From positions 1,904,856 to 1,968,855 of the forward strand of contig CAWFPH010000003.1 in the NCBI GenBank assembly GCA_963817615.1: DNA of 64,000 nucleotides, read 5' to 3'. A program made the position numbers and the translations under genes. Positions within the stretch are counted from its first letter, which is position 1. Every line of letters starts with the position of its first letter. This DNA comes from an uncultured Gammaproteobacteria bacterium (GTDB lineage Bacteria > Pseudomonadota > Gammaproteobacteria > Steroidobacterales > Rariloculaceae). The notes beneath the pieces are model-generated. The model had not been told where the DNA came from. It made no database searches and saw nothing but the letters and a program-made list of their open reading frames with translations. Positions 21,243-52,509 of the stretch are shown here, in pieces.

Positions 21243-22577
21243 TCAGCCTCCGTGGCGGCCCGCTTGCAAGCGCGCATCTCCGGCGAGCTTTGTGGCCGGC
21301 GGCGAATCGGAGCGGCTTTGCTCGAGCGAAAGACCCGCCTGACCTTCACGTTGCGACAGGCGCGTGACGACGACGCCGGCAGGCTGTGGCGCGACGTCGA
21401 CCTTGCGCGTGCGACGCTCGCCACGCCTGCGCTCGCTGCCGCTGCGGCGGTCCGAGACGCCGGCTGGCAAGGGTCGTTGCTGCTTACGCTGCTCCATGTT
21501 GGTTCGGCGGTCTGCGACGGCACGCCGGCGACAGATGGACCAGCGCAGAAAGCGCATCACTGTCCACGAACGGAGAATGACCGACAGGTACAGCATAGCG
21601 GCGCTGACGAAGAGAACGAGCATCGCCCAATTCGGCATCGCAAACACTTCGCCGGCGATACCGATCGCGGCCGCCGCAACCGCCATGCCGGTCAGGATCA
21701 TCACGGTTTCGCCAACCGTGAAGCCCGCCATCATGAGCACGTGGTGGAGATGCTCCTTGTCGGCTCTGAACGGCGATCGACCGCGGGCGAGGCGGCGGAT
21801 CATCATCGTGACCGTATCGCAGATCGGAACGGCAAGGAGCCAAAGAGCGGTGATCGGCGACATTACGGCTTCGGGGCCGGTCGAAAGATCGATCGCCAAC
21901 CACACGTAGGTGAAGCCGAGGAACATCGTGCCGGCGTCCCCGAGAAATACGCTTGCCTTCTTGCGCCCGAACACGCGCGCGTTGAAAACCAAGAATCCCA
22001 CCAGGCACGACATGAGCAACAGGAGCTGCCCGACGTGAACGTCCTGACCCGCGCGCTGCGCTAAAATGGCGAGCGCGCCGAATGCGACCAGCAGTTGAAA
22101 GCCCGCGAGCCCATCGAGGCCATCGGACAGATTGACTGCATTGATGACGCCGATCGCCGCGACCAAAGTGAACGGAATCGCGAGGAACCCGAGCTCGACG
22201 GGACCGAACTCCGGCACCAAACTGCCGATGGTTTGCACGGATACGCCGCCGGCCACGCACATCAAGAGGATCGCGGAGACTTGGAAGGCGATCTTCGCGA
22301 TAGGCCGCAGCTCGAAGAAATCGTCGAGCAGACCGCCGAGCACGATCACCGCGCTCGCGACCGCGAAAACTGCGACGGGCTGAAGCTCCGGAACGAGCAG
22401 GAACGCGCCGATGAGGTACGCCGCGAAGATTCCCAATCCGCCGACGAGCGGGACGTCGCCCAGATGAGCCTTGCGCGAGTTAGGCTGATCGACCAGACCG
22501 ATCTTTTGCGCGAGCGGCGAAAGTGCGCCGATCAGCGCCGCGGTGACCACGGCGACAATGAAAACAGCAACCCTCAT
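21243..22577 (-). CDS. WecA/MraY-family polyprenyl-phosphate N-acetylhexosamine-1-phosphate transferase with an Arg-rich C-terminal tail
   Basis: 444 aa. GLVDQPNSRKAH, PLVGGLGIF, NAVNLSDGLDGLAG and multiple TM helices. The last ~100 aa (RRRAVADRRTNMEQRKQQR...DRRSGSERRRGERRTRK...) are hydrophilic and very basic. Confidence 0.85.
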   Translation of the reverse strand: MRVAVFIVAVVTAALIGALSPLAQKIGLVDQPNSRKAHLGDVPLVGGLGIFAAYLIGAFLLVPELQPVAVFAVASAVIVLGGLLDDFFELRPIAKIAFQVSAILLMCVAGGVSVQTIGSLVPEFGPVELGFLAIPFTLVAAIGVINAVNLSDGLDGLAGFQLLVAFGALAILAQRAGQDVHVGQLLLLMSCLVGFLVFNARVFGRKKASVFLGDAGTMFLGFTYVWLAIDLSTGPEAVMSPITALWLLAVPICDTVTMMIRRLARGRSPFRADKEHLHHVLMMAGFTVGETVMILTGMAVAAAAIGIAGEVFAMPNWAMLVLFVSAAMLYLSVILRSWTVMRFLRWSICRRRAVADRRTNMEQRKQQRPLPAGVSDRRSGSERRRGERRTRKVDVAPQPAGVVVTRLSQREGQAGLSLEQSRSDSPPATKLAGDARLQAGRHGG

Positions 22578-22918
22578 TCAAACGCTCGAACAAAGGGGGA
22601 CATCGAAGATACTAGCCATTCCATGTGAATCTTCTTTTTCAGTCCGCGAAAACGCTCGACGTAAAGGCGGTATCCGCCGTTATGTTCAATGCATTCGCGC
22701 GACTCCCAAAGACCCTTTCGAGCAGCCGCGCCACGGATCGCATCGACGTCGAGGAATAGCCTAACCTTTCTCTCTTCGGAATCAAGTTGACGTGACCAGA
22801 TTTCAGGCTGGGGCCGGACACAATTGCCCGTCCAGCCCTGGAGCATAATGGCTTCCAAGCGAGCGACGAGACAGCGCTCTGGAACGGCTCTAGAATCAAA
22901 GGGTTGTATCAGACGCAC
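22574..22918 (-). CDS. Hypothetical protein, translationally coupled (ATGA) to the WecA-like gene
   Basis: 114-aa ORF whose TGA overlaps the downstream ATG (22574-22577). It lies in lower-GC DNA and no family was recognised. It could be a gene remnant. Confidence 0.3.
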   Translation of the reverse strand: MRLIQPFDSRAVPERCLVARLEAIMLQGWTGNCVRPQPEIWSRQLDSEERKVRLFLDVDAIRGAAARKGLWESRECIEHNGGYRLYVERFRGLKKKIHMEWLVSSMSPFVRAFE

Positions 22919-23268
22919 CTCGAAAGTGCAAACGCTGGTACTTACGCAGGCGTCACGATAACAGGAGCGCCGAGACGTATTCTGTGTTGTCCGTAGCGCG
23001 TGACGCGGTAGGCTTCAGCGACGAAGCGCATTCGTGCTGAGATGCGCCGCCCGGTGCGCGCCGCGACCTGCGGGCAGAGGCGCAGCGCTTCGCGCAACGA
23101 CACCGGAACGGCGGCAAAGTTCGATCGGCCTTCATATCGCCAAACTGATTTTCAAAGAGAACAACGTGGACACGACGCAAGCTCGCAGCACCCTTACGGA
23201 AGATATTAGCCCGCAGACGGAAGTCCCGGGTCGATTTCATCCTATCCAAGGTCGCGACGAAGGACGAG

Positions 23269-23816
23269 ATGAGGATCATCGACATCGGCTGCGGCATCGA
23301 TGGGCGATCGTTCGAGGACTACGTTTCACCGAAGTGGCGCATCACGGGCATCGATATCCACGCTGAGGAACGCGTGACTCATACGCATCCAAATTTCGTG
23401 TATCTGCGCCAGGATGCGCAGAACCTTAGCCAGTTCAGAGACGGCGAGTTCGATCTATCGCTCTCCATCGGGATGATGGAGCACATCACAGATCCTCCGA
23501 CGTTCCGCAGGATCTGCGCGGAAATACAACGCGTGGCGAAACAGTACGTAGTTGTCGTTCCCTATCGCTACTGCTGGATCGAACCTCATTTCGGAGTGCC
23601 GTTCTTTCCGCTGTTTCCGGAGCGGCTCCAGATAGCTTTGGTGAAATCGCTCAACCTCAGTGGACTACGTCACGTACTCGACGAGGAGCCCGACCATATA
23701 AGGAAGAATTATCAGTGGTTCACAAATGCGCAATACCGCGAGATTTTCCTGGATCTACAATCTACCTGCTGCCAACGCTCGAGACCATTGCGATCGTAAA
23801 GCGAACCGCGACATAG
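23269..23816 (+). pseudogene. Class I SAM-dependent methyltransferase (Methyltransf_11-like), start unclear and 3' end frameshifted
   Basis: Motif I IIDIGCG lies right at the first ATG, and MTase-like sequence (RVDFILSKVATKDE) continues upstream in frame without a canonical start. The native-looking C terminus STIYLLPTLETIAIVKRTAT* is in another frame, ending at 23816. Confidence 0.55.
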
Positions 23817-23855
23817 CCGGTTAGCTCGTTCAGAATGCCGAAGAGCCTTCTAGAA

Positions 23856-25150
23856 TTATTGAACTGAAAGCGTAGGACTCTGCGGTCTGACCACGACGTC
23901 CTTTCGCATCAAAACAATCCCATCGCGATCGTTAAGGTTAACGGTTCGCGTCAATTGACCATTGTTAACGCGTCGGGTCTTGACGTCCAGCAATACGTCT
24001 AAAGTCATCCTCGAGCTGAACGGACTTCGCGCCCGTTGCCTTTCGGATTGACTAGTACGATCCCGTTCTCGAAGTCTCGCCTGTAAACGCCGTTCTGCCA
24101 AGGATTAGAGCGCCGGCGCACTCGTTGCCGCCCCGAGAATCGCGTCGTATTCGTCGAAATATGGTGCGTCGTTGTAGGCGTCGGAAGCGTTGAACGCATA
24201 ATAACGCATCATCTAGCAAACACGAAGCAAATCCGTATCGAAACGCCTGGTAGTCAGTCGGGCTGCCGATCTGATGAAAATACCGAGCTTCGGTCGGCGT
24301 ATGCCGCCATGATCTTCCGGTACGCCCTCATCATCTCCGACCAGCCACCCCACGTCTCGAATGACCAACTCGACCGATTAGGGCTTCCATGAAGCCGCCG
24401 TTTAGCTGTTGATCAATTCCGGGAAAACTGCGGCCTCATCGCTTCCCCAATCAGCCGTATTCCCGAGTTCGTACTTATTTGGGAGCAGTTGGTGCATCAG
24501 TTCGAAATGGCGGCGAAGCCCTGCCTTAACCATGTGGCCACCTTAGGATCGGACTTCGAATCGACAATACCATCGGCGTCGTAATCACCGTCAACTCTGG
24601 ACGCCAGAAGACGTTATCGAGATAGAAGCCGTCCAAAGATGGACTGCGTTGAAAAAGCGTGCTGGACGACCCAGTGTCGCGTACCAATCAACCCAACGAT
24701 TACCCTGGCTGTTTGGGCCGCGCTAACAACGTATTGTTGAGCAATACCGCACCAGGCCACAGGAGGTAAGTTGACAGCAGACCCTGACGTCCCAGACGCG
24801 TATAGATACCATCGGTTCGGAATCGAGCGCGGTATAAAGATCGGCCAAAACTGGAGTTCTCGCCGCAGAGATTTCGTTATTGTTGATGTACGCGAAGACC
24901 TTAGTACGCGGATTTATCGCCTTTATGTTTCGTTACGACCTGTTCGATCGTCGTCCCACGACCGACCTCCCAACCGGCCAGAAGTTAATGAGTGCGATAT
25001 CTCCGCGGGCGAGTTGACGTTGGATCGCCGGATCTTCGTAGTTTTGTTGGGTAACCAGTTCACTGCCAGCCGAGGGTACGGCGGATCCTCTGCTCCTAAA
25101 GCTCGTGCCGCGAAGGCAAGTCCCATCAAGACTACGAACAGCTTATTCAT
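23856..25150 (-). pseudogene. Secreted glycoside-hydrolase-like (GHL15-type) protein, multiply frameshifted
   Basis: ATG 25150 follows AGGAGGG and encodes a signal peptide (MNKLFVVLMGLAFAARALGA). Downstream fragments lie in different frames: DPAIQRQLARGDIALINFWPVG, INPRTKVFAYINNNE, DGFYLDNVFWRPE and GVYRRDFENGIVLVNPKGNG...DRDGIVLMR. The family call is from recall only. Confidence 0.4.
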
Positions 25151-25508
25151 TGAAGCCCTCCTGGCTCTGCAACCTATGAGACAGCATGTTCGTGCGTCAA
25201 GGCAAACAGTCGCTGATGGCAGACATTGAACCGCGATTGACGGTGAGCCTTGTGACGGGTTTCTCAATTTGGCGCCTGACAGCCGCGAACCCGTCATCAC
25301 GTTCGGATCCATCGATCCGATTTCACGGAACGCCCCCTACTCGGCGGAACATGCGTCCGGAGACCTCTCACCATTTTTCCGATCGGCGTCGATCGCGTTC
25401 ACGCCCTATCAGCGTTGAGTCGAACCGGACAGGAGCTGTGGTCAATTTTGCAGACGGCGTCATTACGCCTCAGGACATTCAGTGTCCGGAAACGCAGGTT
25501 GAGACCGC

Positions 25509-25730
25509 CTACTTCTTCTTCCAAACGTAAAACGTCGCTTCGCTGATCCCCATCGTCCGACAAACGTCACCCACCGGTGTGCCGCTCTCGGCCTGCTTCA
25601 GGGCGTACAAAATCTTCTCTTCCGAGTACCTCGATCGCTTCATTGCTCTAGCTCCTTGATGCGCTGCCAAGGGCCGAAGCGAGCAATCTACTCCAGGTCT
25701 AAACGACTACGAAAAATCGGGACCACGTCA
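25509..25730 (-). mobile_element. Remnant of a second IS3-family element: terminal repeat (TGACGTGGTCCCGATTTTTCG...) plus the 5' part of orfA
   Basis: orfA' (25643 down to 25509) reads MKRSRYSEEKILYALKQAESGTPVGDVCRTMGISEATFYVWKKK*. The TAG sits where the family motif WKKKYGGL has Tyr, and GGL follows in frame. Downstream sequence is degenerate. Confidence 0.6.
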
Positions 25731-25775
25731 GAATTTTGCCATCAAGTGCTGTCGCGGGGAGAGATTGCCGGGGTT

Positions 25776-26636
25776 CTACCCCGTTTCCACGGACGGTTGA
25801 GTTAAGGCTGAAAACTTCCGATCTTGCCGGGCCACTCTACGACGCATTCGCGGGTTGTGGAACCGCTCGAGGTAATCAAACAGGTCCGCGCGCGCCTCAT
25901 CGCGCGTCCGGTACTGACGATGGTGCACACGTTCCCGCTTGAGCATTCCGAAAAAGCCCTCGCAAGCCGCATTGTCGGCGCAGTGGCCGACCGCGCTCAT
26001 GCTGCAGACCAACGCGTTGCCACCCAGGAACTTCTGGTAGGTGCCGCTGATGAACTGACCGCCGCGATCCGAGTGCAGGATGACCTCCGAGCTGCCCGCC
26101 CGTTGCCACACAGCCATCTGCACCGCGCGCACGACCATGTGTCGATCCTGCCGGTGATGCATCGACCAGCCCGCCACGAGCTTGCTGAACAGATCGAGCA
26201 CGATGCACAGATACAGCTTGCCTTCGAGCGTCAGGATCTCCGTGATGTCGGTGACCCACTTGGTCTCCGGTTCGTTGGCACTGAAGTCTCGTTCGAGCAG
26301 GTTCTTGACCCCGACAGGTCGAACCCCTGCCTTGCCGCCGAAGCGGCGCTTGCGCCGCCGCGGCCAGCCCTGCAGGCCGGCACCCGCCATCAGGCGGGCC
26401 ACCCGGTTGAGGCTGACGCGCTCGCCCTCGTCGGCGAGGTCCTCGTGCATGCGGGGTGCGCCGATCACTCCGAGGCTGTCTTCATGGATCTCTCGGATGC
26501 GCTCCAGCAAGCGCGCATTGGCTTGCGCGCGCGGCCCAGGCGTGCGGCACGCCCACGCATAGAAGCCGCTCGTCGAGACTTCCAAGCAGCGGCACATCAT
26601 CCCCACGGGATACTCGCTGCGGCAGTGTTCAATCAC
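25776..26636 (-). CDS. IS3-family transposase orfB (rve/DDE integrase core)
   Basis: 286 aa: ...[12 protein letters not shown]...[12 protein letters not shown]...[10 protein letters not shown]...[17 protein letters not shown]. The frame continues upstream into orfA through the slippery site. Confidence 0.85.
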
Positions 26637-26936
26637 CGCGTACCGCTCGGTGACTGCTTCGCGAAGTACGCTGCCGCGTCTCTTAAAAAATCCCGTTCCT
26701 TGGTGACCTTCGAGAGCTCGCGCTTGAGGCGGGCCATCTCCTCATCGCGCGGCGTGCCGCCGCCCGGGAAGGCTTGTGCCTCCGGCCTCGGCTTCACGGA
26801 CCCAACGGGTCAACAGGTTCGGGTTGACCCCGACCTCCAGGGCGATCTGCCGGCAGCTCGACTGCGACCGCCGAACCAGCTCGACGATCTCTCGCTTGTA
26901 CTCAGGGCTGTAACGCTTGCGCTTCGACATGGACAC
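26633..26936 (-). pseudogene. IS3-family transposase orfA (HTH), internally frameshifted near 26775
   Basis: The N-terminal part MSMSKRKRYSPEYKREIVELVRRSQSSCRQIALEVGVNPNLLTRWVREAEAGG is in one frame. The C-terminal part [30 protein letters not shown]...* is in another. Confidence 0.65.
26684..26690 (-). promoter_or_regulatory. Candidate programmed -1 ribosomal frameshift heptamer T TTT TTA linking orfA and orfB
   Basis: The minus strand reads GAT TTT TTA AGA. Slipping -1 there continues as [26 protein letters not shown], which is the orfB frame. Confidence 0.6.
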
Positions 26937-26994
26937 TCCTCTGGCTCAGTATGAGCCTTAGTGAAAGTGTCCGCAGAATCGGGGTAGAACCCTG

Positions 26995-27230
26995 GGCGGC
27001 CACGCAGCTCGACGAGCTGATCGAGTGCACGCACGATGCGCCGAGCCGGTAGATTCGCGTCGATCTCGATCCGCAGGACATCGCGGTCGAAGTCTCCATC
27101 AGACGTTCGAACGCGCGAAACTGTCGACCCGACCACAAGGCATCGGCCATGAAGTCAGCCGACCAGACCTCGTTCGGTCGAGCCGGAGTCACCAAGGGCG
27201 CATTCACCTGCGACCGGGTTCTGCACAAAT
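26995..27230 (-). pseudogene. IS3-family orfB fragment cut by the IS at 25769-26994
   Basis: Fragments PARPNEVWSADFMADALWSGRQFRAF and DGDFDRDVLRIEIDANLPARRIVRALDQLVELRGRP lie in two frames. The second runs straight into the IS terminal repeat. Confidence 0.55.
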
Positions 27231-27341
27231 GTATCCGGCCTGTAAAAAATCCGACAGCTCCCGTCGTCGCCGCCCCGCAGCGCTCGCGACATTAGCTTTC
27301 TTCATCGCAACGCAAATGCCTCTTGCAGGCAGAGAATAATT

Positions 27342-28085
27342 TTGCCACTCTTCGGTATAACCCCTCTACGATCATATGGCAGAGAGATCTGTCTTATGCA
27401 AGGGACAAGTGCATCTTCGTCCATATTCCAAAGTGCGCGAGGCTCTAGCTTTGAGGTGGTCCTCGGACACGAGGGACTACCTGACCATACGACGATACGC
27501 ATGTTGGAGGCGCCGATACCGATCCTGAAATCGGTGGCGGCACCCGATAACCTCAAGCAGTTTGTATTGAGATGTCGGCAGCACGTCCTTGGACACGTCA
27601 AGCATCAAAGAGGACCTGCGCTAAGTCGCGGTCAATATGAGGACTACTTCAAATTCTACGATTATCCGGAATCCATGGAGTAGAGCGTTCTCCTGGTAAA
27701 GAACTGTATGCGTAGCCCCGCACATCGGCAACACTATGGCTTAGCGCCTAACATGACACTTGCTCAGTTTTTAGGCGATGGAGTGGGCGAGAAGCCTTGA
27801 GACCACAGACGGAGTGGTTAAAGAACTACTCTGGCACAATTCCTATGGACTAGATTGGCCGGTTCGAATCATTACCGGCCGACTTTCGCGCAATCAAACG
27901 TCGTCTCAATCTCTCGGCTTCCACGTTACCTCATGCGTTCAAAGGCAGCGGAGGATTACCGCACCTACTTCGATCCTACTTCGATCGAGTTAGTGCGCCG
28001 CGTATACGCCGAAGAAATCAAACTCTTTGGCTATTCGTTTGATGGGACCTATTACAAGGAGACCGCGAGCGCGGCGACGCCCTGA
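27342..28085 (+). pseudogene. Sulfotransferase-family protein, multiply frameshifted
   Basis: Pieces in different frames: ARGSSFEVVLG (the family has PKxxGSSF here), STIIRNPWSRAFSW (family motif RNPWDR..S.Y), and DYRTYFDPTSIELVRRVYAEEIKLFGYSF (typical C terminus). Confidence 0.5.
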
Positions 28086-28149
28086 TTTCAACCCTCAGCG
28101 GTCCAACCGACAAAAGGCTGGGTAGCCCCGCGGCGCTCTCTGAGACGTA

Positions 28150-28454
28150 TTCCGCGTCTATAACGGAGAAGACGGCTCGCGAATTCGTCGACTGGGCAAA
28201 AGGCAGGCATGATGATCGAATACATCGAGCCCTGCGAGCCGAATCAGAAAGCCTATATCGAGCGGTTCAATCGAACGTATCGCGACGAAGTCCTAGACCT
28301 TCAGCTGTTCGAGACACTCGAGCAGGTCCGGGAAATCACGCATCGGTGGCTGATCGATTACAACGAGCATCGGCCGCACGACTCGCTTGGCGATTTGCCG
28401 CCAAGCGAGTATGCAAAAACCGCCGGAAGTTCTAGTTCTCAACCGCCCGCTTGA
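28150..28454 (+). pseudogene. IS3-family orfB C-terminal fragment (opposite orientation to the other remnants)
   Basis: TEKTAREFVDWAKGR is followed, after a frame change, by MMIEYIEPCEPNQKAYIERFNRTYRDEVLDLQLFETLEQVREITHRWLIDYNEHRPHDSLGDLPPSEYA. A further scrap, RRRHSALGYMSP, lies at about 28470-28530. Confidence 0.6.
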
Positions 28455-28614
28455 CGGGGAGCTACGCGACAACCCGCGTCGTCGACACTCGGCACTCGGA
28501 TATATGAGCCCGCGGAATACGAATGGACCGCAGGGTGTCACGGGAAACGGGGCAAGCGCAACGCACGGTCGTATCGACCCACTATTGAGTTCAGGACGAG
28601 TTCGGAACGGCCGC

Positions 28615-29893
28615 TCACTTGCGGTTCCTTGCTAGCCACGCTAGCTTCGTCATTGCGCCAATGTATGACCACACGTATGGCAAGGGCGAATAGAGCACCA
28701 CGAAGGAAATCGACACCAGTAGCGCAATCAACGCATATAGGAACGCAATCAGGTAAGAGCGACTGACTGGATCAGCGTTCGGCAAAGTACGCGCAACCGC
28801 GCGATAGACGCTAACGAAAAGCCAGAGAAACACGGACAGCCCGATTGCGCCGGTGTTGTACAGCAGCAGCAAGTAATGGTTGTGGGGATCCGTATAGATC
28901 CCACTGTAAAAAACATATTCCATCCGACGCCCGTTACGAAGCTGTATGGCTTACTCAGCATGTCGATCAAAGTCGCCTGCCACACAACGGTTCGGCCTGC
29001 GCTTGCAGTGCTGAGCGTCTGGGCTCCTTGCGTCTCGCTCATTCGAGACAAAAACATGTCTGGGTTCGAGAGGAATGCAACAGCTGCAATCGATCCGAAA
29101 AGCAGCACCGCGCAACACCAACCCTCAGAACGGTGCGAGATCCAAATAGTCGCCTCAAGAGGGCCGTCGCTATCACGGCTCCTAACGTCAAACCTACCAG
29201 CGCCCCACGTGAGCCGGTCTCGAGAACCAGCATCATCGAGGCAAGAACACCCACCATCACAATTAAAGACCTTGGGCGAAGGAAAAGCAGCGGACTTACT
29301 GCGAGGAAAAGAATACGAGAAACGCAGCGAACTGGTTGCTCTCTCCTACGGCACCAGCGAGACGGCCACCTTCGATGGTTTCTGTCAGACCCATGTCGGG
29401 CAGCTTCAAGAAATCCATCAATAAGACAATGCTCAAAAGCGAAATTACGATCGCGATGCGTTTAACTAGCCATAGCACATCTCCAGTGCTCCGCAGACCA
29501 AAGAAGAAGACACAGAAAAACAACAGCGGGTCCACGAGCTGCGTTTTAAGGCTAAGAAGGTTTATCAGACCATCGTAGTTGCTATGTACGCTCGTCGAGA
29601 TTGCCCATGAAGCCAGCCCGTAAATGCATAGGAGCCACGAATACCACAAGGAAGCGGGGAAACCGCGTACCCAAAAGCGTGCCGCGCGCCACAGCGACGC
29701 AAGAAAGGTAGCCGACCATAAGATAAAGAACGATGTTCTTAAAGCTCAGTCCTGGAAGGACCGAGAGGCCGATCTGAAAAACGTCGTCCGCGAGCAGGAC
29801 CGCGAACAGTCCGAGGAGCGCAAGATTACGACCAAGGCTGGATACGCCAGCACCAGGTCTACGCAACGAACCTAACTGCACGAGACTTTGCAT
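28615..29893 (-). pseudogene. O-antigen ligase/polymerase-like (Wzy_C) membrane protein, at least 4 frameshifts
   Basis: Five overlapping hydrophobic ORF fragments in different frames: 29582..29893, 29296..29649, 29039..29260, 28749..29108 and 28615..28923. The last contains HNHYLLLLYNTGAIGL, the Wzy_C-type motif. Confidence 0.6.
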
Positions 29894-30143
29894 TGAGATG
29901 CGTTCGAGGAAACGACCAAATTTCCGAAGTGTACGCTTGTTTTGTCAGTTCCCCGTGCACGGTTGACGGAATAGAGACAATCTGAACTGAGATCAGGGCA
30001 CTCCCGCCCTGACACTACCGGCCGGACAGGTGAATCTCGCTAGAAAGCCAAGGGCGAACTGCACCACCAGCTGCTCTGGATGCCGGACCGGTCGAACCTA
30101 TGCCGCTCTCGCCATCGTCGCCGCGCAGATCTGCTGAAGAGTC

Positions 30144-30975
30144 CTATGCGGGACGGACTCCCACGATCTGGATGGTGAAGATCAAATTTGCGATCGGTCG
30201 TCGCATGCGCCAACGCTTCGGCGCTAAAGCACAAAGGCGCTCGATGAGGATCATCAACCAAGCCGGCACCTCGATGTAGCGACCACGGCCGCCGATGAGA
30301 CTTCGCACGGAGCGAAACCCAGCCGCAGCAAACAAGCCTGCAAGTTCACGAAATGTGTACTCTCGGAGGTGAAACCCCGTCGCGTAAGTCGTCAAAGCCT
30401 GCTGAAATATCGTGGGGACCGCAAAGTGCATTTGGCGTGATGCACAGATATCGTCCGCCAGGCGCAAGGGCAGCGTAGACGTTCTCTAGTTGGGCTCTAG
30501 CATCGTCCGGATGTAGATGCTCCATGAGCTGGTTGGAGAACGCCAGTGTTGCGCCGGCGACCGGGATGCTGGTCCCGTCGGAAAGCACCAGCTGGCAATT
30601 GGCTGGCAGCACCCGTCGCGTTATTTCTGATGAAACATCGACGGCATACACGTGTTGAACTCGCGCTGCGACCGCAGCGGAGAGCGCACAATCGCCAGGA
30701 CCAATCTCGAGGAAGATAGAGCTTGGATTCAGATATCGACCGACAATCGCCAATAGCTGATCGACGTAGCGGCGCGTCTCATCCGGCGACGCCTTTCGTG
30801 TCAGCTGCGGATGGTCGGGTATCTGCGAGAACAGCTCATCGTAGAGCTCCCGATACAACCGGCCTCTTTCGGTCAATGGGGCGCTGCGCAACTTGGCGGC
30901 GAGAGCGCGCTCGATGTCGTAGTGCCGCCTTACGGCGGACGCTTCTCGGGCTGGATGCAATTTGTCCATCTCCAT
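30144..30975 (-). pseudogene. Class I SAM-dependent methyltransferase with one frameshift near 30440
   Basis: ORF 30346..30990 (FLEIGPGDCALS...LAPGGRYLCITPN) continues in ORF 30144..30467 (...ATGFHLREYTFRELAGLFAAAGF...) in another frame. Confidence 0.6.
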
Positions 30976-31407
30976 GGCGCACACTGCCAACGAATTACCC
31001 GCAAATCACCTAGTGGGCCGTCGGCCAACCTGCCCATACAACTGCGGCGAGCAGAACGTTATGTCATGCGCGGCCGCCCCCGACCACCGGATTCTGGCAA
31101 CCAAACCAAGCTAGTACAAGCGCTGGTCGGGAGCCTTGCCCAAACCAGCGCCGCCTTCTCGGGGAGGCGAACTGCCTGGAAGCGGCGCACCCGTGACTCG
31201 TCAATCGTGACCGCGGTCATTTCCACCCTTCACCCAGATGTTAAATTAGCCTTCCTCCGATCGCGGGCGCCTCTCCTGACGGGTTATAGACTTACCGCTA
31301 CTTACGACGAAGCTGCGATAACCCTATACTCTAATGACACTATGGCTATGCTGAGGAACGGCGTGCCTAAAGGGACACCAATCCATCGCGTTCGTGATGG
31401 ACGCTCG

Positions 31408-32014
31408 ATGTTTCGTGCCGCGTTAAGCGTCCTTTGGTTCTCGCTCAATTGGGCCGCGACGCCTTGGGCGGCCGAAGCTCAACAGAGCGCCCCGGCGCCC
31501 GCCGACGACGCGACCTATACGATACAGCCAGGCGACGTGCTCGAGGTATCCGTCTGGAAGGAAACAGACCTCCAGAAGGACGTAATTGTCCGCCCGGACG
31601 GCGCATTCGCGTTTCCGCTTGGCTGGCGAGATACAGGCACGCGGCAAGACCGTCGAACAGGTCCGCAGCGAGATCACGCAACGACTCGTCCGCTACGTTC
31701 CGGACCTCGTTGTCACCGTGATGGTCAAGGAGATCGTCGGCAACCGAATCTACGTCATCGGCCAGGTCAACAAACCGGGCAGCTACGTCGTCAATCCAAG
31801 CGTCGACATCGTCCAAGCACTGAGCTTGGCCGGCGGCACGACCCCCTTCGCTTCGCTCGATTCGATCAAGATCATCCGCCGAGACGGCGCGAAAGCAGAT
31901 CTGCGATTCCGTTCAACTACGGCGACGTCTCAAAGGGACGAAATCTCGATCAAAACGTCATGCTGAAGACCAGGCGACGTTTTGCTGAGTCCCGTGATGC
32001 GTCGCTCACAGTAA
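31408..32014 (+). pseudogene. Polysaccharide export protein Wza/EpsE-like (PEP-CTERM-locus type), 3 frameshifts
   Basis: Signal-like start MFRAALSVLWFSL..., then YTIQPGDVLEVSVWKETDLQKDVIVRPDGAFAFPL in frame 1. AGEIQARGKTVEQVRSEITQRL...VKEIVGNRIYVIGQVNKPGSY...LSLAGGTTPFAS...IKIIRRDG is in frame 2. IPFNYGDVSKGRNLDQNVMLK returns to frame 1, then PGDVLL is in a third frame. The first shift is an extra t at about 31619. Confidence 0.7.
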
Positions 32015-32061
32015 TATCGTCGCTTGTCGCGCGACGGCACGCTCATACAAGAGGACAATAC

Positions 32062-33780
32062 ATGGACGACACCGCAGGCGTTTCGATAGAGGACTACCTG
32101 ACGATTTTTCGTCGGCGACGCTTTGCGATGGCGTGGGTTGCTCTCGGCGTGCTGACTCTCGCCGTGGTCGTAACGACGTTCATGCCGGAGCGTTATCGTT
32201 CCGCGGCCACGATCCTGATCGAGGATCCCGAAGTCCGCGGCGAATACGTTCGGACGACCGTCCAGATCGCAAGCACCGACTTGCGCATCGACCGCATGCG
32301 TGACCGCGTCGTCAAACGGGAAAACCTGGAACCCATCATCGAGGAATTCTCGCTCTATCCGGACGAGGACCCGGAGGACAGGCCCGGTCTCCTGCGCAGC
32401 AACATCGACATCCAGAAGATCATCAACAGTAACGATCCGCGAGCGCAGCTGACCGGTCTTGGAGATACCGTGGGCTTCCAGGTCATTTTCACGGCGGATA
32501 CGCCGGAGGCCGCACAAGGGAGTGGCGAATCGCCTGGCCGAGCTGTTCGTCACGGAAAACACGAAGAGCCGCACCGAATCGGTGACGCAGACCTCGAGCT
32601 TTCTCGAGCAGCGAGGCCGACGCTCTCAAGACTCAACTGACCAAGACCGAGCAAGCGCTGGCCGAGTTCAAGAAAGCAGAACGCGGGCAGCCTGCCGAGC
32701 GATAAGGACCTCAATTTGCAGATGCTCGACCGGAACCAGCGCGATCTCGACTCAGTGGACCGAGAGATTCGAACGCTGCAGGAGCGCAAAAATCTGCTCA
32801 CTGCCCAAATCGCGAACACACCGTCATCGGCAACGGTTTACTCCGACAAGGGCGAGCCCATCCTCGGCACCGATCAGCGCCTCGAAGCGTTACGCCGCGA
32901 ATACGTGTCGATGGCTGCCCGCTACAGCCCGGAACACCCCGATCTCGTGAGGCTGCGACGCGAGATTGCGCTGTTGAGCGACGGCAATGCTACGCCTGCC
33001 GGCTACGGATGTGATCCAAAAGGAGATCGACGAGAAGCGAGCTGCAACTGAAGACGCTGCGGCAGCGCTACGGAGACGATCACCCCGATATCAAGCGATT
33101 GGAGCGGACGATCGACGGGCTATTGGAGGAGCTCAAAACCGCCCCGATGGAGACCAAAGCCAAGAGCCAAGGGCAGCGCAGCAACCCGACAATCCGGCCT
33201 ATATCGAGCTCCAAGTCCAGATCTCCGGTGCCGACAGCGAGCTTGCCGCGCTTCGCACCCAACGCGACGAGTTTCGCGACCGCATAACGGACTACGAAAA
33301 GCTGATCGCGCGTGCGCCCGAAACCGAAAAGCAACTGCTCGCGCTCACGCGCGACTACGAGATTGCGCGGCACGATTATGACGAGACTCGGCAAAAGCAA
33401 GCAGAAGCTCAACGAGCCGTGGTGATCGAGGACCAGCAACGAGCGGAGCGGTACGTGATGCAGAGAGCCGCTGGCTTGCCGAGCGGCCCGGCCCAACCGA
33501 CTCACCTTACGTTGCTGGCCATAGGCTTATTCTTGAGCATCACCGCAGCGCTTGGGCAGTGGGCATATTGCGAGAAGCGATCGACATCACTGTCACGGGG
33601 CGCGCGCGACCTCCGCACGATGCTCTCGACGCCGCCGATCGCGGTGATCCCGATGATCGAGAACACGACGCGACACCAGACGGCGCGTTCTGCGGCGCGC
33701 CGCGCTGGCAGTCTCTTTCGCCGCAGTGGCGGTGTTCGGCGTCGTGGTGCTTGCTTGTAAGCGCGCGAGCAGAACCATAA
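32062..33780 (+). pseudogene. Chain-length determinant (Wzz-type, PEP-CTERM-locus subfamily-like), about 9 frame changes
   Basis: ATG 32062 follows AGAGGA. IEDYLTIFRRRRFAMAWVALGVLTLAVVVTTFMPERYRSAATILIEDP is the family N terminus. Later coiled-coil pieces (VANRLAELFVTENTK, EADALKTQLTKTEQALAEFKK, LQMLDRNQRDLDSVDREIRTLQERK, QRYGDDHPDIKRLERTIDGL, PAYIELQVQISGADSELAALRTQRDEF) alternate between all three frames. Confidence 0.7.
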
Positions 33781-33797
33781 GCAACGGAAGCAATGAA

Positions 33798-34621
33798 ATG
33801 GGACACATCGAACGAGCCATAGCCCAGGCTAGAGAGCGCGAAAGACTCGCTGGCTCGTCATCGCGCGCCGGAACGCGCAGCGCCGGCACAGCCGGACACT
33901 TCGCCAGACTTCGCGCCCGCCGTCGATATTGGCACGGTCCGCCGTATCGAGCTGGATCAGGCGCTGCTCCAAGCGAATCGCGTCATCGCCGGCACTGGAC
34001 GATCGGCAGGCGCAGAGGCGTTCAAGATGCTGCGCACGCGCGTGCGACGCGCGATGGAGAGCCAGCGGCTCACGACGCTTGCGATCTCGAGCGCGGCACC
34101 GAACGAGGGCAAGACTCTCGTGGCAATCAATCTCGCGTTCACGATGGCAGCGGAGACAACCGGCGAGGTCATTCTTGCCGACTTCGATCTGCGCAACCCT
34201 TCGATCGGCAAGACGCTGGGCATAGACCCGTCTCTGCCCGGGACTCGGCAGCTACCTGCGAGGCGAAGCGCGGCTGCAGGACATTTGCCTTTGCCCCTCG
34301 CCGGGCCGTTTGGCCATCATCGCGAATTCGGAAGTGTTCGAAAACTCGTCCGAAGTCCTCAGCTCTCCGAAGATGGCCGAGCTCGTTGCCGAGCTGCGAA
34401 GCCGCGGCGGCTCCAGAATCGTGATTTTCGACTTGCCGCCGCTACTTCATGCCGACGACTTTCTCGCGTTCAGCGCGCACGTCGACGGGCTGCTGCTCGT
34501 CGCGTGCGAGGGCAAGACGAAACGTCAGGACCTGCAGGAAGCGTTCGATCTGCTCGATGGCGTGAACGTTTTGGGAACCGTGCTCAACAAGTCGGTGAGC
34601 CAGGGAGAGAATTACTACTAG
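33798..34621 (+). pseudogene. CpsD/CapB/EpsG-like tyrosine autokinase ATPase, 2 frameshifts
   Basis: MGHIERAIAQARERE (frame 3), then ...AFKMLRTRVRRAMESQRLTTLAISSAAPNEGKTLVAINLAFTMA...ILADFDLRNPSIGKTLG (frame 1, Walker A), then RLAIIANSEVFENSSEVLSS...IVIFDLPPLL...LLVACEGKT...GTVLNK (frame 2). Confidence 0.7.
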
Positions 34622-34653
34622 CCGCGGCTCGCCGCCTCTAGCGCTCGCGGTGC

Positions 34654-35418
34654 TCAAGCAGGTCGTAGCCGGTGCACCGCCCTTTCTGATGATGTAGGTA
34701 AGCCCGCTCTGCTCGGTAGATAGCCGGCCCAAGCGAAGCGATCTCGACGATCTTCATGAACGCGAACAGCACGTTTTTCAGTCGCTCCGAGATGGCCCCA
34801 ATTGCTGCTCGCAAATTCGACCTCGATCTTTAGGCCGTGCTTTCGGCAGTACGCGTTGATGCCCTTGCGAGAGACGATTCGATCGTAGTAAGTCGGGTAC
34901 GGATCGTGCCCCGGCTTACCGGCGTTCGGATTTCCTTCGACATATTTCTTGAACAGCACGTGGCACCAGAACGGCAGAAGCCGAGTAACGAAGCCGAAGA
35001 CCGAATCACGATTCGGAATCCGCAGCACCAGCAAACCACCGGGCTTCAGCCACGCAATGAAATTGTCGACAACCGCTTCGGCTCCGTCGACGTGCTCGAG
35101 CACGAACGCGTTGTAGATCACGTCGAACGTTCCGCTCGGAAAGCTCGCCGTGCGCAGATCGCCATGGACGACCTCGTGCAGATCTCGATGCGTGCGCATC
35201 CTTATGTCGAGCGCATTGCGGTCCATGTCGATGCCCGTCAACTCATAGTTGAGGCCATCTAACTTGAGCGGCCACTGCGTACCGCAGCCCGCTTCGAGAA
35301 TCTTGACGACCTCTTTGGTCGGGAATGCGGAACGCACGAAACTGGACAGGACCCGGTTCTGTTCGAACCAGTCGTCGAGCATTTCGATCGGGGCAAGAGC
35401 GAATGGTGTCGCGGACAT
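34654..35418 (-). CDS. Class I SAM-dependent methyltransferase
   Basis: 254 aa with motif I ILEAGCGTQ, FDVIYNAFVLEHV and LKPGGLLVL. The last ~45 codons look non-native, and an alternative frame reads ISERLKNVLFAFMKIVEIASLG. A 3' frameshift is therefore possible. Confidence 0.65.
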   Translation of the reverse strand: MSATPFALAPIEMLDDWFEQNRVLSSFVRSAFPTKEVVKILEAGCGTQWPLKLDGLNYELTGIDMDRNALDIRMRTHRDLHEVVHGDLRTASFPSGTFDVIYNAFVLEHVDGAEAVVDNFIAWLKPGGLLVLRIPNRDSVFGFVTRLLPFWCHVLFKKYVEGNPNAGKPGHDPYPTYYDRIVSRKGINAYCRKHGLKIEVEFASSNWGHLGATEKRAVRVHEDRRDRFAWAGYLPSRAGLPTSSERAVHRLRPA

Positions 35419-35752
35419 TTACACTTTGCGTCTATCTGGTATATGTGGCAGCACGGCAACCGTCGGTGGCTGTGCCGAGCGGAGTTCCGTGCGTATCATA
35501 GCGTCTCTGCGCTGCGCATGAATGTCGATTTATTCATGGTTGGCCAACACGCGCAAGACAGTCCGAAGATCCGTGAGCCCTCTCACAGCCGCAAACACCG
35601 TCGGATGCTAAATAACGATGCGACCGCCTCGACCTCTACGAACACGATGACCGGATTGTTGCTCCGTTGCTGCGCGACAGTCCGGCGACCCGCCGCATCC
35701 GCTACGCGGCGGTTGCCCGTTCGAGCGGGTTCCTGCCTTAGGTAGTGACGTC

Positions 35753-36945
35753 TTGCCAAGCGTCTGCATCATCTATCCCGCCGACCCGTTGGGTGTCCTT
35801 CCCAGCGGGATCGACACGTTCATCGACGGCCTCATTCGCTGGTCTCCGCCGGACTTCGATCTTCGGCTGGTCGGCGTCACGACCGACCCGTCCGCTCGGC
35901 GCATCGGAGAGTGGAACGAGTGCAGGCTGGGGACCCGACGATTCGAGTTCTATCCGCTCTTCCGCTTCAGCCGCGGCAGCCGTCGGCCCGACCATCCCTG
36001 TAACCGTGCGCTTCTTGCTGGCACTATTGCTTGGCAGACCGTCGATTCGAGCGGACATCCTGGAGTTCCACCGCCTCGAGCCGCTGCTGCTCTTCCTGCG
36101 GGACTCGCGGCCGAAGACGAGCTTCATTCACCAGAACATGGCGGAACTGCACAACCGTCACGCCGACATTCGCTGGAAGCACGCGCCCGGCTTGTACTTT
36201 GCGCTCGAGGGCTTTCTAATCCGGCGGTTGAAGAAGCTCTTCTGCGTGCGCGAGGACGCCGTCGTCAACTACCGCAAGTCGCTACCCGGAACAGGCCGAA
36301 CTGTTCGATTTCACGCCGACGTGGGTCGACCCCGAGCAGTTCTCGCCGGCGTCGGCGGAGACGCGAGCCGCACTTCGCAAGGAATTCGCACGAAGCATGG
36401 GTGCGTCCGCCCGACGAACCGCTCCTGGTGTCCGTCGGGCGACTCGATCAACAGAAGGATCCGTTGCTGCTTTAGCGGCATTCGAGGAGTTGCGTAAGCG
36501 CCGAGCGGCGCGGCTCGTCATCATCGGCGACGGCATGCTGCGCCGCGACGTCGAGCAGTTCATTGCCGACCACGGCCTATCGAGCTCGGTGACCCTGGCT
36601 GGCCTCAAGCCGAAATCCGAGATCGTGAATTGGCTGCGCGCGGCGGACGTGTTCGTGCTGTCATCGGCCTATGAGGGCATGCCGATGGCTGCGCTCGAAG
36701 CGCTCGGCTGCGGCCTGCCCGTCGCATCGACGGACGTGGGGGAGATCCGCCGAGTGGTTACGCCGGGCGTGAACGGTGCGATCGTGCCGCACGGCGACGC
36801 TACGGCGCTTGCCGGCGCGATCGAGCAGTGCATCGACCGGCGATCGGCTCTTGCCGGCCGTCCTTGCACGGACGCCGTCGCCGAGTATTCGCCCGCCAAA
36901 ATCGTCGGCCACATCTACAGCGCTTATCGCAAGCTACTGCCATGA
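35753..36945 (+). pseudogene. GT4-family (GT-B fold) glycosyltransferase, 4 frameshifts
   Basis: The frame order is 2, 3, 1, 2, 1. SVCIIYPADPLGVLPSGIDTF..., then ILEFHRLEPLL...ALEGFLIRRLKKLFCVREDAV, then FTPTWVDPEQFSP, then LLVSVGRLDQQKDPLLL. The last piece is AAFEELRKRRAARLVIIGDG...VFVLSSAYEGMPMAALEALGCGLPVASTDVGEI (the EX7E region). Confidence 0.65.
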
Positions 36946-37730
36946 CGCTGCATCGGGAGAGGATCGCCGGTCACGAAGTCTGCACGCTGCTCTCGCGCCG
37001 ACTGCATCGCGGACATGGTGGACTGGATCGAGCACGGCAAGACGCCGCGATTTTTCGCGTGCGCAAATCCTCATTCGATCTCGGTCGCCGAGAGACGCGC
37101 CGAGTTCAAAGACGGCGCTGGCGGCGGCGGACTGGCTGACGCCCGACGGAGTCGGTGTCGTGCTCGCATCGCGCTTGCTGCGCGGCTCCATCAGGGAGCG
37201 AGTCACGGGCATGGACGTGTTGAGCGGCGTATCTCGCGCACTATCCGACCGCGGCGGATTCCGGACGTTCTTTCTCGGATCCACCGAGAAGACGCTCGCG
37301 GCAATCAGAGGTCGCCACATGCGCGAGTTCCCCGGTCTCGAAATCGCCGGCATGCTGTCGCCGCCGTTCGCTCCGCAGTTCAGCGCAGAACAGACCAGCG
37401 CGATGATCGACGCCGTCAACCGTGCGAAGCCCGACGTGCTTGTGGGTCGGCATGACGGCTCCCAAGCAGGAGCTCTGGATTCACGAGAACTTGGATCGGC
37501 TCGACGTCCGCTTCGTCGGCGCGATCGGCGCGGCGTTCGACTTCTTCGCGGGCACCATCAAGCGGCCGGCGGCGATCTACCAGCAGCTCGGCATCGAATG
37601 GCTGGTCAGATTGGTGGGCGAGCCGAAACGCCTTTGGTACCGCACGGTCGTATCCGCTCCCCGTTTCCTCTGGCTGGTGGGCCGTCATCGCGTTGCCGAG
37701 ATCGGCCGGACAGCTCAACTGGTCGACTGA
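36942..37730 (+). pseudogene. WecB/TagA/CpsF-family (GT26) glycosyltransferase, 3 frameshifts
   Basis: The ATG overlaps the upstream stop (ATGA). Pieces are FFACANPHSISVAERR, DWLTPDGVGVVLASRLL...FFLGSTEKTLAAI...PGLEIAGMLSPPF and LWVGMTAPKQELWIHEN...VGAIGAAFDFFAGTIKRPA, in frames 3, 1, 2, 3. Confidence 0.65.
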
Positions 37731-38899: not shown

Positions 38900-40030
38900 C
38901 TAGAGACGCTCGAACAATTCGACATACCGCTTCGTCACTGCGGCTGCAGAATAGGTATCCACGGCGTAGCGACGCACCAACGCGGCCATGGCGGCGAGAC
39001 GGGTTGGGTCACCTGCGAGCGCGCTCAGTGCCGCTGCCATCTGCTCGATATCGGCAACGCGCATACCGAAGCCCCGCCGCTCTATGAGGCCGTCCGGGTC
39101 GAAAAAGGACACGATCGGCACGCCCCTGATCCAGGCCTGCAAGAACGAATTGGGAAAGCCTTCGGACTCCGACGTGTTCACGAACAATTTCGCGCGGGCG
39201 AAGTAGGCGTTCACATCCTTATAGGGCACGGGTCCCAGTGCCTCGAGGTTGGACACGCCTCGCGCGGCCCGGAGGATGCCCTCGTAGTACGACTCTTGCC
39301 CCGGCACCGGCCCGCCGATCATGACGAAGCGAAGACCCGGACAGCGCTGCGCGACCTCCACGAGCAGCTCGGGACGCTTGAACGAGCGCATGTTGTTGAC
39401 CCAGAGAACGTCGATATCGCGCGGCCCGTCCAGATTTTCCGCAGGGTCCTCGACGACCATGTCGACGACTTCGCTCGAGAGTCCATAGTGCTGCCGCAAT
39501 AGAGCTTGCTGCTTGACCGTCTGAGCCAGGATGGCGTTCGCACGGCGCAGGCCATACGCGTAAAGGATCTTGTCGCGCCGAAAGCGCAGCATGTGCTCGC
39601 TCGGCACGCAGTCGCTGTCGTGGGCGACGCGAAAAACGAAGCGCCTGTCATAGCGCCGTGCAAATGCCGCGAGAACGGCGGGCACGTAATCGGCGCAGGA
39701 AAAGTAGTAGATGTCGGCATTCGCACGCTTGAGCGCGGACCAAAGCGACGTGGTCTTCGGATGAACGAAACGCACGACTGGCAGTCCCGCCGTCGGTGCA
39801 CAGGTCTTGTAGACGCGGATGCGGCCGATCGTCTCGCCGTCCTGCTGACCGAAGTCGCGAACGATCGCGGACACGTCGTGACCCGCGGCCGAGAACGCTT
39901 TGGCCAACAGGCTGTGCTGCACGGATTCGCCGCCGAGATAGGTGGTGTCCGACGTCCCGCTCAAGACGGGGTATGCATCCGCGTGGACGAAGCAAACCTT
40001 CAACATTGCCGTTCCATTTCCATGCGGCAT
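38900..40030 (-). CDS. GT-B fold glycosyltransferase (intact)
   Basis: 376 aa: LKVCFVHADAYPV...LFVNTSESEGFPNSFLQAWIRGVPIVSF. ATG 40006 is an alternative start. Confidence 0.8.
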   Translation of the reverse strand: MPHGNGTAMLKVCFVHADAYPVLSGTSDTTYLGGESVQHSLLAKAFSAAGHDVSAIVRDFGQQDGETIGRIRVYKTCAPTAGLPVVRFVHPKTTSLWSALKRANADIYYFSCADYVPAVLAAFARRYDRRFVFRVAHDSDCVPSEHMLRFRRDKILYAYGLRRANAILAQTVKQQALLRQHYGLSSEVVDMVVEDPAENLDGPRDIDVLWVNNMRSFKRPELLVEVAQRCPGLRFVMIGGPVPGQESYYEGILRAARGVSNLEALGPVPYKDVNAYFARAKLFVNTSESEGFPNSFLQAWIRGVPIVSFFDPDGLIERRGFGMRVADIEQMAAALSALAGDPTRLAAMAALVRRYAVDTYSAAAVTKRYVELFERL

Positions 40031-40036
40031 GCCGAT

Positions 40037-41249: not shown

Positions 41250-41312
41250 GCGCGAGCGGCGCCCGCGGCGGTATCGGCGAGCCGCGCCTCGATCAACGTC
41301 GAAAGCTGCTCG
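41221..41312. repeat. Direct repeat copy 1 (92 bp, 3 mismatches to 43111-43202)
   Basis: tag[c/g]tgtgcacgacgtgcaggatcttcatgcgcgagcggcgcccgcggcggtatcggcgagccgcgcctcgatca[ac/gt]gtcgaaagctgctcg. It spans the ATGA junction of two glycosyltransferase genes. Confidence 0.9.
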
Positions 41313-41480
41313 CCTGTCTGCCTCCAGTCCCCTGCAAATCGCTGAGCAGGTCGCGCTATTCGCGCGCAGCGGAAAGCGCTCGGGCCAATTCCGATCGAGA
41401 ATGTACGACATGAGGCCAACGCGAAGCCCTTCACGTAATTGGTCGCTTCGCGGGCATCGCCTGCGCTGAAGCGGCGCGGC
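41250..41480 (-). pseudogene. Degenerate, internally deleted copy of the 3' end of the 43136..44335 glycosyltransferase gene
   Basis: ...NYVKGFALA...LMSYILDRNWPERFPL...EQLSTLIEARLADTAAGAARA* parallels ...SYVKGFDVGLMPYVLDRHSDNVSPL...EQLSTLIEARLADTAAGAARA* of the intact gene. Confidence 0.55.
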
Positions 41481-45104: not shown

Positions 45105-45112
45105 GGCACAAG

Positions 45113-46468: not shown

Positions 46469-46490
46469 TTTTGATGGCGCCTTTACCGTG

Positions 46491-47318: not shown

Positions 47319-47640
47319 TGACTGAGTCCAAACAGTATTGCGAGCGACCGCCCCAATGAGGTCTGGACCAAGACGGGCTCGGCACGGGGTTCGAGGATAG
47401 CCTGTCCACTGCGTAAAGTGGCGTGTTAGATCTCACATTAGTCCTTCCGTGCGCGCGGCAGTGCGCCGCGACCATCGAGCGGTCGCTCGATCGCCCTCCT
47501 GGCGCTGAGCCCGATTGCGGGATTCGTGATGCCGGGCTTGGCGGCCACGGCAGCATTCCCCTAGTCTATGTGAGCCGCTGAAACCGAAGCAATCGCCGAG
47601 CACCCTGGCCGCGCGATTTACCCGAAACTACGAGGACCGC

Positions 47641-51154: not shown

Positions 51155-51163
51155 CGTCGCCGG

Positions 51164-52443: not shown

Positions 52444-52509
52444 CGCCTGTCTCCCTGTCGGCTTGGAACGACGTCCGTTGTCTGCGTCGTTCGACGTTCA
52501 ACACCATCA

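Follow-up and report, generated by a model that had tools for sequence, protein, structure and literature searches.

The window, a 64,000-nucleotide stretch of one contig from an uncultured gammaproteobacterium, contains a 14.6-kb run of polysaccharide genes in which an insertion sequence and two insertion-sequence remnants are embedded. The genes for PrsK and PrsR lie to the left of this island, and genes for glycosyltransferases and an ABC exporter lie to its right. The following features occupy the run; frame changes are the switches of reading frame that a full-length protein requires.

23149..23815, + strand: class I SAM methyltransferase MT1 (Pfam Methyltransf_11/25/23)
23868..25141, - strand: GHL15 glycoside-hydrolase-like gene, full length, 18 frame changes, 0 in-frame stops
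25508..25640, - strand: remnant of a second IS3-family element, N-terminal part of orfA with a second HTH_Tnp_1 stretch
25771..26992, - strand: complete IS3-family insertion sequence with 42-nt imperfect terminal inverted repeats and HTH_Tnp_1, HTH_21 and rve domains
27330..28085, + strand: Sulfotransfer_2 family gene, at least 5 frame changes, PF03567 match of the stitched protein
28206..28403, + strand: remnant of an IS3-family orfB, C-terminal rve_3 part (Pfam rve_3, E 1.6e-23)
28633..29842, - strand: Wzy_C / O-antigen-ligase-like membrane protein, 4 frame changes (29635, 29309, 29115, 28915), 0 stops
30040..30990, - strand: methyltransferase MT2 (Pfam Methyltransf_23, positions 7-162 of 164, stitched protein)
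31456..31993, + strand: Wza-type polysaccharide export protein, 3 frame changes (31618, 31893, 31972)
32062..33743, + strand: Wzz-type chain-length determinant, 9 frame changes, 0 stops
33798..34618, + strand: XrtA-associated-type tyrosine autokinase, 2 frame changes (33930, 34237)
34654..35418, - strand: methyltransferase, open 254-aa ORF, 2 frame changes (34797, 34733)
35753..36939, + strand: GT4 glycosyltransferase, 4 frame changes (35987, 36279, 36415, 36471)
36957..37730, + strand: GT26 (WecG/TagA/CpsF) glycosyltransferase, 3 frame changes (36990, 37108, 37439)

The first-pass annotation had described the consecutive polysaccharide genes and the IS3 orfA as each needing frame changes, roughly 30 or more in all, and had proposed counting indels against family members by frameshift-aware methods. 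Such a count bears out the description and raises the number. A custom protein-to-DNA aligner that allows frameshifts was run with intact homologues as references, taken from the metagenome contigs L001 and L007 and from the proteins P0009 and P0129-P0131. The eight genes with such references require 45 frame changes in 2,684 aligned codons, a density of approximately one in 180 nt. About eight further changes fall in genes without close references (at least five in the sulfotransferase, one in the IS3 orfA, and probably one each in MT1 and MT2), bringing the block total to approximately 53 sites; the counts for MT1, the sulfotransferase and MT2 are based on manual stitching of frames. The earlier gene assignments proved essentially right, from the methyltransferases, GHL15 and Sulfotransfer_2, through the 'ligase-like' gene (Wzy_C), Wza, Wzz and the tyrosine kinase, to GT4 and GT26.

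The most heavily affected gene is GHL15, with one frameshift per 71 nt. Eighteen events were obtained against each of P0129, P0130, and P0131, with a corrected identity of 60-64%, and the homologues, 433 aa long, cover 99% of the stitched query. Wzy_C is 52% identical to its 444-aa counterpart in L001, and its tblastn HSPs alternate among four frames. For Wza, frameshift-aware alignment gives 69% identity to the L001 protein. Wzz is 57% identical to the L001 Wzz and was also aligned to P0009; the stitched protein matches 560-aa homologues with 62% identity and 100% coverage. The tyrosine kinase is 65% identical to a 263-aa protein of L001, and GT4 is 61% identical to the 410-aa GT4 of L001, with a tblastn pattern in three frames. 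GT26 was aligned over 36957-37700 with WecG of L007 as the reference, and the corrected protein exceeds the cutoff of TIGR00696 (118.9 bits against 69).

A Pfam scan of the six-frame translations with stops masked detected single domains divided between frames. Thus, positions 3-41 and 39-76 of the Poly_export profile fall in two frames around 31615, and positions 1-101 and 96-135 of the WecG profile in two frames around 37435. For the sulfotransferase, the six-frame scan gave no Sulfotransfer_2 match at E<0.01 in 27.33-28.08 kb, and the stitched protein matches PF03567 over positions 8-252 of 252 (E 4e-16). In this gene, a TAG codon at 27851-27853 lies where the family motif reads D-Y/F-I-G-R-F-E. 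MT1 is mostly in one frame and probably changes frame once toward its 3' end, near 23745, a count that is not firm because it comes from stacked frames and distant references. In MT2, which has no close reference, stacked frames likewise suggest one change near 30385, after which the other frame runs to approximately 30040. The methyltransferase at 34654-35418 had been considered a possible exception to the frameshifting, and it turns out to carry two shifts near its 3' end. Its last approximately 40 residues fit the relatives only once both shifts are made (alignment span 35382-34682; 237-aa reference from L007, 48% identity), and low local scores make these two events less certain. A search for contigs encoding the 254-aa protein gave no record.

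The complete insertion sequence is a typical member of the IS3 family, with terminal inverted repeats, an orfA with a helix-turn-helix domain, an orfB with an rve (DDE) domain in the -1 frame, and a slippery run between them. Aligned along its entire length with the IS3 element of CP113227.1, it shows 74% nucleotide identity, and the two elements share the T/A run where orfA meets orfB. The orfB gene (304 aa, 963 nt) is intact, and frameshift-aware alignment places one extra base in orfA near 26786. The flanking triplets, where a 3-bp target-site duplication would lie, differ (CCG and TGG), and the ends of the element are uncertain by approximately one base. Both the IS3 insertion and the two remnants are genuine and nothing unusual for islands of this kind.

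Seven control genes outside the block, at 36-65% identity to their references, showed none under identical settings, and gltX, Dus, PrsR, PrsK, and DegT are intact. The earlier claim that long reading frames elsewhere are intact thus holds for the controls and housekeeping genes. It fails at smaller frameshift clusters, together approximately 12 sites, at approximately 40.4 (40.44), 47.95, 50.3, and 51.2-52.4 kb, all of them in polysaccharide genes. In the C-methyltransferase at 51-52 kb deletions dominate, whereas insertions dominate in the block, so the error process is not uniform. A codon-usage Viterbi frame tracer, whose training on high-GC flanking sequence makes it unsuited to the 54% GC part of the island, was used solely as a pointer to suspicious spots outside it.

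The lesions themselves have a distinctive pattern. Single-base events account for 38 of 45, with one extra base in 28 cases and one missing base in ten. The suggestion that several indels sit in short homopolymers did not survive: no repeated base is present at 20 of the 45 sites, the longest run at any site is at most 6, and the largest homopolymer averages 1.91 nt at shift sites versus 1.87 nt at random sites, that is, without enrichment. Against the 45 frameshifts, the 2,684 corrected codons contain no in-frame stops. A random substitution in these codons has a chance of approximately 3.2% of yielding a stop, and about 4.3 stops are therefore expected at three substitutions per indel (the probability of observing none is 0.014, falling to 8e-4 at five per indel), with the expectation spanning 4-14 at three to ten substitutions per indel. 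All genes with close references align end to end at full length, and their shift sites show neither truncation nor the loss of several codons.

Substitutions tell the same story. Identities to one set of four outgroups are 56-59% for the corrected GHL15 and 57-61% for its intact relatives P0129 and P0130. For the corrected Wzz, identities to outgroups are 0.56, 0.37, and 0.38, and for its intact sister P0009 they are 0.57, 0.36, and 0.38. A branch longer than that of functional relatives was thus not found for the corrected GHL15 and Wzz, both within approximately 2% identity of intact sisters. Because their outgroup identities are close to those of the sisters, these genes, with 18 and nine indels, respectively, have accumulated essentially no additional substitutions.

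The first-pass annotation had offered two readings, a decaying exopolysaccharide locus and a locally poor consensus, and had held that the sequence cannot decide between them. In fact, the sequence discriminates a good deal: nonsense codons are nearly absent, the indels are single bases outside homopolymers, the genes keep their full length, and the window's branch shows no surplus of substitutions, all of which favors consensus error. We consider it probable that the frameshifts stem from a consensus of locally poor quality in a polysaccharide island that varies among strains. An artefact is expected to leave overwhelmingly 1-nt indels in otherwise conserved, full-length coding sequence, as is seen here; in addition, the control genes are clean, and the other patches with similar clusters are confined to polysaccharide genes. 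The insertion sequence points in the same direction: the element is structurally complete, both inverted repeats are present, orfB is intact, and orfA differs by one extra base. Several observations run against this explanation, namely the real rearrangements (the IS3 insertion, the two remnants, and an 8.8-kb lower-GC insert that separates WecA from Wza relative to L001), up to three in-frame stops where references are weaker (TAG at 27851, TGA at 51835, and maybe one at 51534), the contrast between an insertion excess in the block and a deletion excess at 51-52 kb, and the intact 963-nt IS3 orfB, which is mildly unexpected at a uniform error rate. A minority of the lesions may be real.

Because the flanks are clean, generally low quality cannot be the cause, and a local one is needed. 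Residual indel errors of long-read and hybrid assemblies concentrate in stretches of low coverage or of divergence between co-existing strains. The most likely mechanism would be a presumably long-read or hybrid assembly with a poorer consensus in the island than in the flanks, so that the assembled island carries many single-base insertion and deletion errors. One source may be low coverage over a strain-specific segment; alternatively, diverged co-existing haplotypes may have been collapsed, with the consensus threading in extra bases or dropping bases.

The block resembles residual indels of long-read or hybrid (meta)genome assemblies in that the lesions are mostly single-base and free of substitutions, the genes are full length and conserved, and the damage is patchy and falls in the most strain-variable gene class, the source being one very long contig that lacks close relatives. 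The window proteins are seen only on this 2,030,089-bp contig and are singletons at 90% identity, and an exact 40-mer search of genome contigs gave no match. The sole near relative is L009 (ENA 'contig_13850'), a public contig with a Flye-style name that shows the same kind of noise: it differs by approximately 200 gaps, most of them 1 nt long, and these extend to genes without lesions in the window. For this lineage, noisy assemblies from long reads are thus on record. L009 was considered as a third sequence for assigning each indel to one side, and was dropped as too noisy itself. The differences from typical long-read errors are that homopolymers, the classic weak spot of nanopore sequencing, are not enriched at the sites, and that extra bases outnumber missing ones in the block.

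Another scenario is genuine recent pseudogenization, in which the island was inactivated, for example by IS activity or because the polymer was no longer needed, and real frameshifts have been piling up neutrally. We regard it as unlikely, although it would account for the confinement of frameshifts to accessory polysaccharide genes with housekeeping genes intact. The IS3 element and the remnants inside the block also fit it, as do the possible nonsense codons at 27851 and 51835 and the lower GC of the 23-30 kb region, which suggests acquired DNA. Pseudogene-rich loci of host-restricted or recently specialized bacteria likewise combine interruptions in consecutive accessory genes with IS elements and leave housekeeping genes untouched, but the lesions there are a mix of nonsense codons, deletions of many sizes and truncations, with raised substitution rates. 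Here, stops are essentially absent (none in the referenced codons and one TAG in the unreferenced sulfotransferase), genes with close references lack truncations and larger deletions, and branch lengths are normal. Neither the varied indel lengths nor the deletion bias and frequent location in repeats that accompany decay are observed. In bacteria, spontaneous indels are biased toward deletions, cluster in runs, and arise several-fold less often than substitutions, whereas the block has mostly single extra bases outside homopolymers. It is also difficult to reconcile decay with GHL15, which has a frameshift every 71 nt and yet retains 64% identity to its homologues.

A real, locus-restricted process that produced more than 50 single-base indels almost exclusively and within a very short time (local hypermutation by an error-prone polymerase, phase-variable switching of capsule genes, or a deliberate recoding system) would fit indels without substitutions clustered in surface-polysaccharide genes, an often phase-variable class, but is highly improbable, as 20 of the 45 sites lack a repeated base and no run exceeds 6, nine to 18 shifts in one gene cannot be toggled, and the block showed neither diversity-generating nor repeat machinery. 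Phase variation relies on long simple repeats, one or a few in each gene; both it and programmed frameshifting were rejected, given the lack of repeats and the many shifts per gene.

If the frameshifts were real, the island would be an unusually indel-dominated case of decay of a surface-polysaccharide locus. If they are consensus errors, as we favor, about 13 'pseudogenes' and many short ORFs, including deposited fragment proteins, would be mis-annotations, and it would be a mistake to read genome decay or a loss of exopolysaccharide production into this record. The 609-aa ORF at 30811-32640 would be another spurious annotation; it is an off-frame chimera of Wza and Wzz, and a search for related loci with this ORF found none. 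For other records, stops per frameshift, branch length relative to intact sisters, and indel size and context provide a sequence-only recipe for distinguishing noise from decay without reads.

Under the consensus-error explanation, the island would be a normal, probably functional, strain-variable exopolysaccharide or O-antigen-type locus of the XrtA/PEP-CTERM type, and the organism would probably have a working system of this kind. PrsK (TIGR02916, 414.9 bits, cutoff 300) and PrsR (TIGR02915, 680.9 bits, cutoff 502.6) exceed the curated NCBIfam cutoffs for these two-component regulators. As in XrtA/PEP-CTERM (EpsI-type) loci, they flank the island, and pepcterm models are the best matches for the corrected transport proteins: pepcterm_export for Wza (TIGR03027, 129.9 bits vs. 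cutoff 180), pepcterm_ChnLen for Wzz (TIGR03007, 262.7 vs. 278.85), and pepcterm_TyrKin for the tyrosine kinase (TIGR03018, 135.6 vs. 230.65). Unlike in those loci, all three score below the curated equivalog cutoffs, and by these profile scores they are related to the XrtA/PEP-CTERM families rather than certified members. The gene order WecA-Wza-Wzz-kinase is common to the window and the metagenome contig L001.

The GC content of the window is ~64% overall, ~54% at 23-30 kb and ~60% at 30-36 kb. Long ORFs are almost absent between 23 and 37.7 kb, where the block contains genes for three methyltransferases, GHL15, Sulfotransfer_2, Wzy_C, Wza-Wzz-kinase, GT4, and GT26. The following features surround it:

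tRNA-Glu and tRNA-Ala, left of the block
12024-13388, PrsR, regulator matching PrsK
19125-21167, PrsK, XrtA/PEP-CTERM histidine kinase, left of the block
21243-22577, WecA-type phosphotransferase, left of the block
glycosyltransferases, ABC exporter, and sugar-nucleotide genes, right of the block

Whatever the cause of the frameshifts, the gene content and layout of the island are ordinary for XrtA/PEP-CTERM-type loci; its transport proteins are related to the pepcterm families, with scores below the curated cutoffs. The order WecA-Wza-Wzz-kinase is common to the window and L001, a metagenome contig with intact homologues. In L001 (7690-9187) WecA and Wza adjoin and are divergent, whereas in the window (22577-31456) an 8.8-kb insert of lower GC lies between them, containing a methyltransferase (MT1, 23149-23815), GHL15, IS elements, the sulfotransferase, Wzy_C, and another methyltransferase (MT2, 30040-30990). 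By exact-sequence look-up, the window proteins, including two short fragment ORFs, occur on one 2,030,089-bp contig (NCBI and ENA) only, and all but one of those looked up are singletons at 90% identity among ~15 billion proteins. Therefore, there is no close relative for direct comparison.

Pfam scans of stop-masked six-frame translations place positions 3-41 and 39-76 of the Poly_export profile in different frames around 31615, and split the WecG profile (1-101 and 96-135) around 37435. Stitched by hand, Wzz matches, over 97-100% of its length, intact homologues of 558-560 aa at 54-62% identity, and GHL15 matches 433-aa homologues at 56% identity with 99% coverage. Most block genes are present intact on L001 and on L007, a second metagenome contig carrying Wzz/GHL15 homologues. 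With intact homologues as references, a purpose-written protein-to-DNA dynamic-programming aligner allowing frameshifts yielded the following counts:

GHL15, 18 frame changes, identical with three references
Wzz, 9 frame changes
Wzy_C-like, 4 frame changes
GT4, 4 frame changes
Wza, 3 frame changes
GT26, 3 frame changes
tyrosine kinase, 2 frame changes
methyltransferase 34654-35418, 2 frame changes

The eight genes total 45 frame changes over 2,684 codons of alignment. None occurs in seven controls from outside the block, which are 36-65% identical to the references used for them. The Sulfotransfer_2 gene, visible to Pfam only once stitched, adds at least five by manual stitching, IS3 orfA adds one, and MT1 and MT2 probably one each, for a whole-block total of at least 53. 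Split domains and frameshift-aware alignment thus bear out the first-pass annotation in that the polysaccharide genes are frameshifted; its estimate of ~30 changes was too low, and the methyltransferase at 34654-35418, proposed as a possible intact exception, is itself probably frameshifted. The longest ORF of the block (30811-32640, +, 609 aa) runs from the N-terminus of Wza through an off-frame stretch into the N-terminus of Wzz. It was rejected as a gene, being an off-frame join, and no relatives were found in 185,579 species genomes.

The likely explanation is that the consensus is locally poor within a strain-variable island, on a long contig whose remaining sequence is well resolved. Most likely, the block genes are intact in the organism and the frameshift feature is not biological. 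Apart from consequences for annotation, its importance is low. Genuine decay of the polysaccharide locus, which we consider improbable, is suggested by the type of gene affected, the presence of IS elements, and at most three ambiguous stops; nothing else supports it. Approximately 3.2% of random substitutions in the corrected codons produce a stop. At 3, 5, and 10 substitutions per indel, natural decay predicts 4.3, 7, and 14 in-frame stops, but the 2,684 corrected codons contain none (P = 0.014, 8e-4, and 1e-6, respectively). Under natural mutation, the 18 indels in 1.27 kb of GHL15 should be accompanied by dozens of substitutions; however, the similarity of corrected GHL15 and Wzz to outgroup homologues equals that of intact sister proteins, with no extra divergence.

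In bacteria, spontaneous indels arise several-fold less often than substitutions, show a deletion bias, and cluster in runs. In the block, each of these three tendencies is reversed, which also argues against decay. Single-base events make up 38 of the 45 changes (28 with one extra base, 10 with one missing), 20 of the 45 lie at sites without any repeated base, and the largest homopolymer averages 1.91 at the sites, the same as the background (1.87). All closely referenced genes align over their whole length, and none is truncated or has a larger deletion at a junction. Nothing positively supports a genuine indel-only mutational process or recoding, which is very improbable.

Structurally, the IS3 element at 25771-26992 is complete: it has inverted repeats, its 304-aa orfB is intact, and the run at the junction is shared with a plasmid IS3; despite this intact structure, its orfA contains one extra base. 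With its ends placed to within about a base, it shows no obvious 3-bp target-site duplication (CCG at 25768-25770, TGG at 26993-26995). Two remnants of a second IS3-family element, an orfA start at 25508-25640 (-) and an orfB end at 28206-28403 (+), lie in opposite orientations to each other, on either side of the complete IS3 and the sulfotransferase gene. This layout suggests a past rearrangement or deletion.

The one window protein with a relative at ≥90% identity led to L009 (ENA ERZ25039533, contig_13850), the protein collection's sole near relative. This metagenome contig is 82-91% identical in nucleotides to window 44864-54929, with ~200 gaps, mostly of 1 nt and also inside genes intact in the window, and the genes called on it are fragmentary. 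L009 resembles a long-read assembly left unpolished; the lineage therefore has at least one public assembly of this noisy, long-read-style kind.

Right of the block, overlapping ORFs that looked suspicious were scanned with Pfam, revealing further splits, including a second cluster:

near 40.44 kb, GT4 with N- and C-domains in different frames, single frame change
near 47.95 kb, GINT1_N-like gene, single frame change
near 50.3 kb, DUF4910 gene, single frame change
51167-52399 (-), C-methyltransferase (Methyltransf_13/14), in pieces

Against full-length references, the C-methyltransferase shows 8-10 shifts, mainly single missing bases; three homopolymer contractions could create its TGA at 51835. 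Thus, the earlier claim that long ORFs elsewhere are intact holds for gltX, PrsK, the long GGDEF/EAL ORF, and the giant ORF, as well as Dus, DegT, and PrsR, but not for these four genes. All genes split right of the block are polysaccharide genes, and the intact ORFs just named are uninterrupted; therefore, the noise occurs in patches, all within the strain-variable polysaccharide region at 23-52 kb, with clean genes between the patches (e.g., 37.76-40.0 kb). Such a consensus could plausibly stem from low coverage where a segment is strain-specific, or from diverged haplotypes collapsed during consensus calling. Either could account for extra bases at non-repeat sites, for the restriction of the errors to the genes that vary most, and for the cleaner state of the multi-copy IS.

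The 587-aa ORF at 39648-41411 is an off-frame extension, overlapping the next gene by 380 bp. A further split gene may lie at 41503-43039 (+), where two ORFs of 272 and 287 aa, neither with a Pfam match, share 145 nt in a region of 56% GC.
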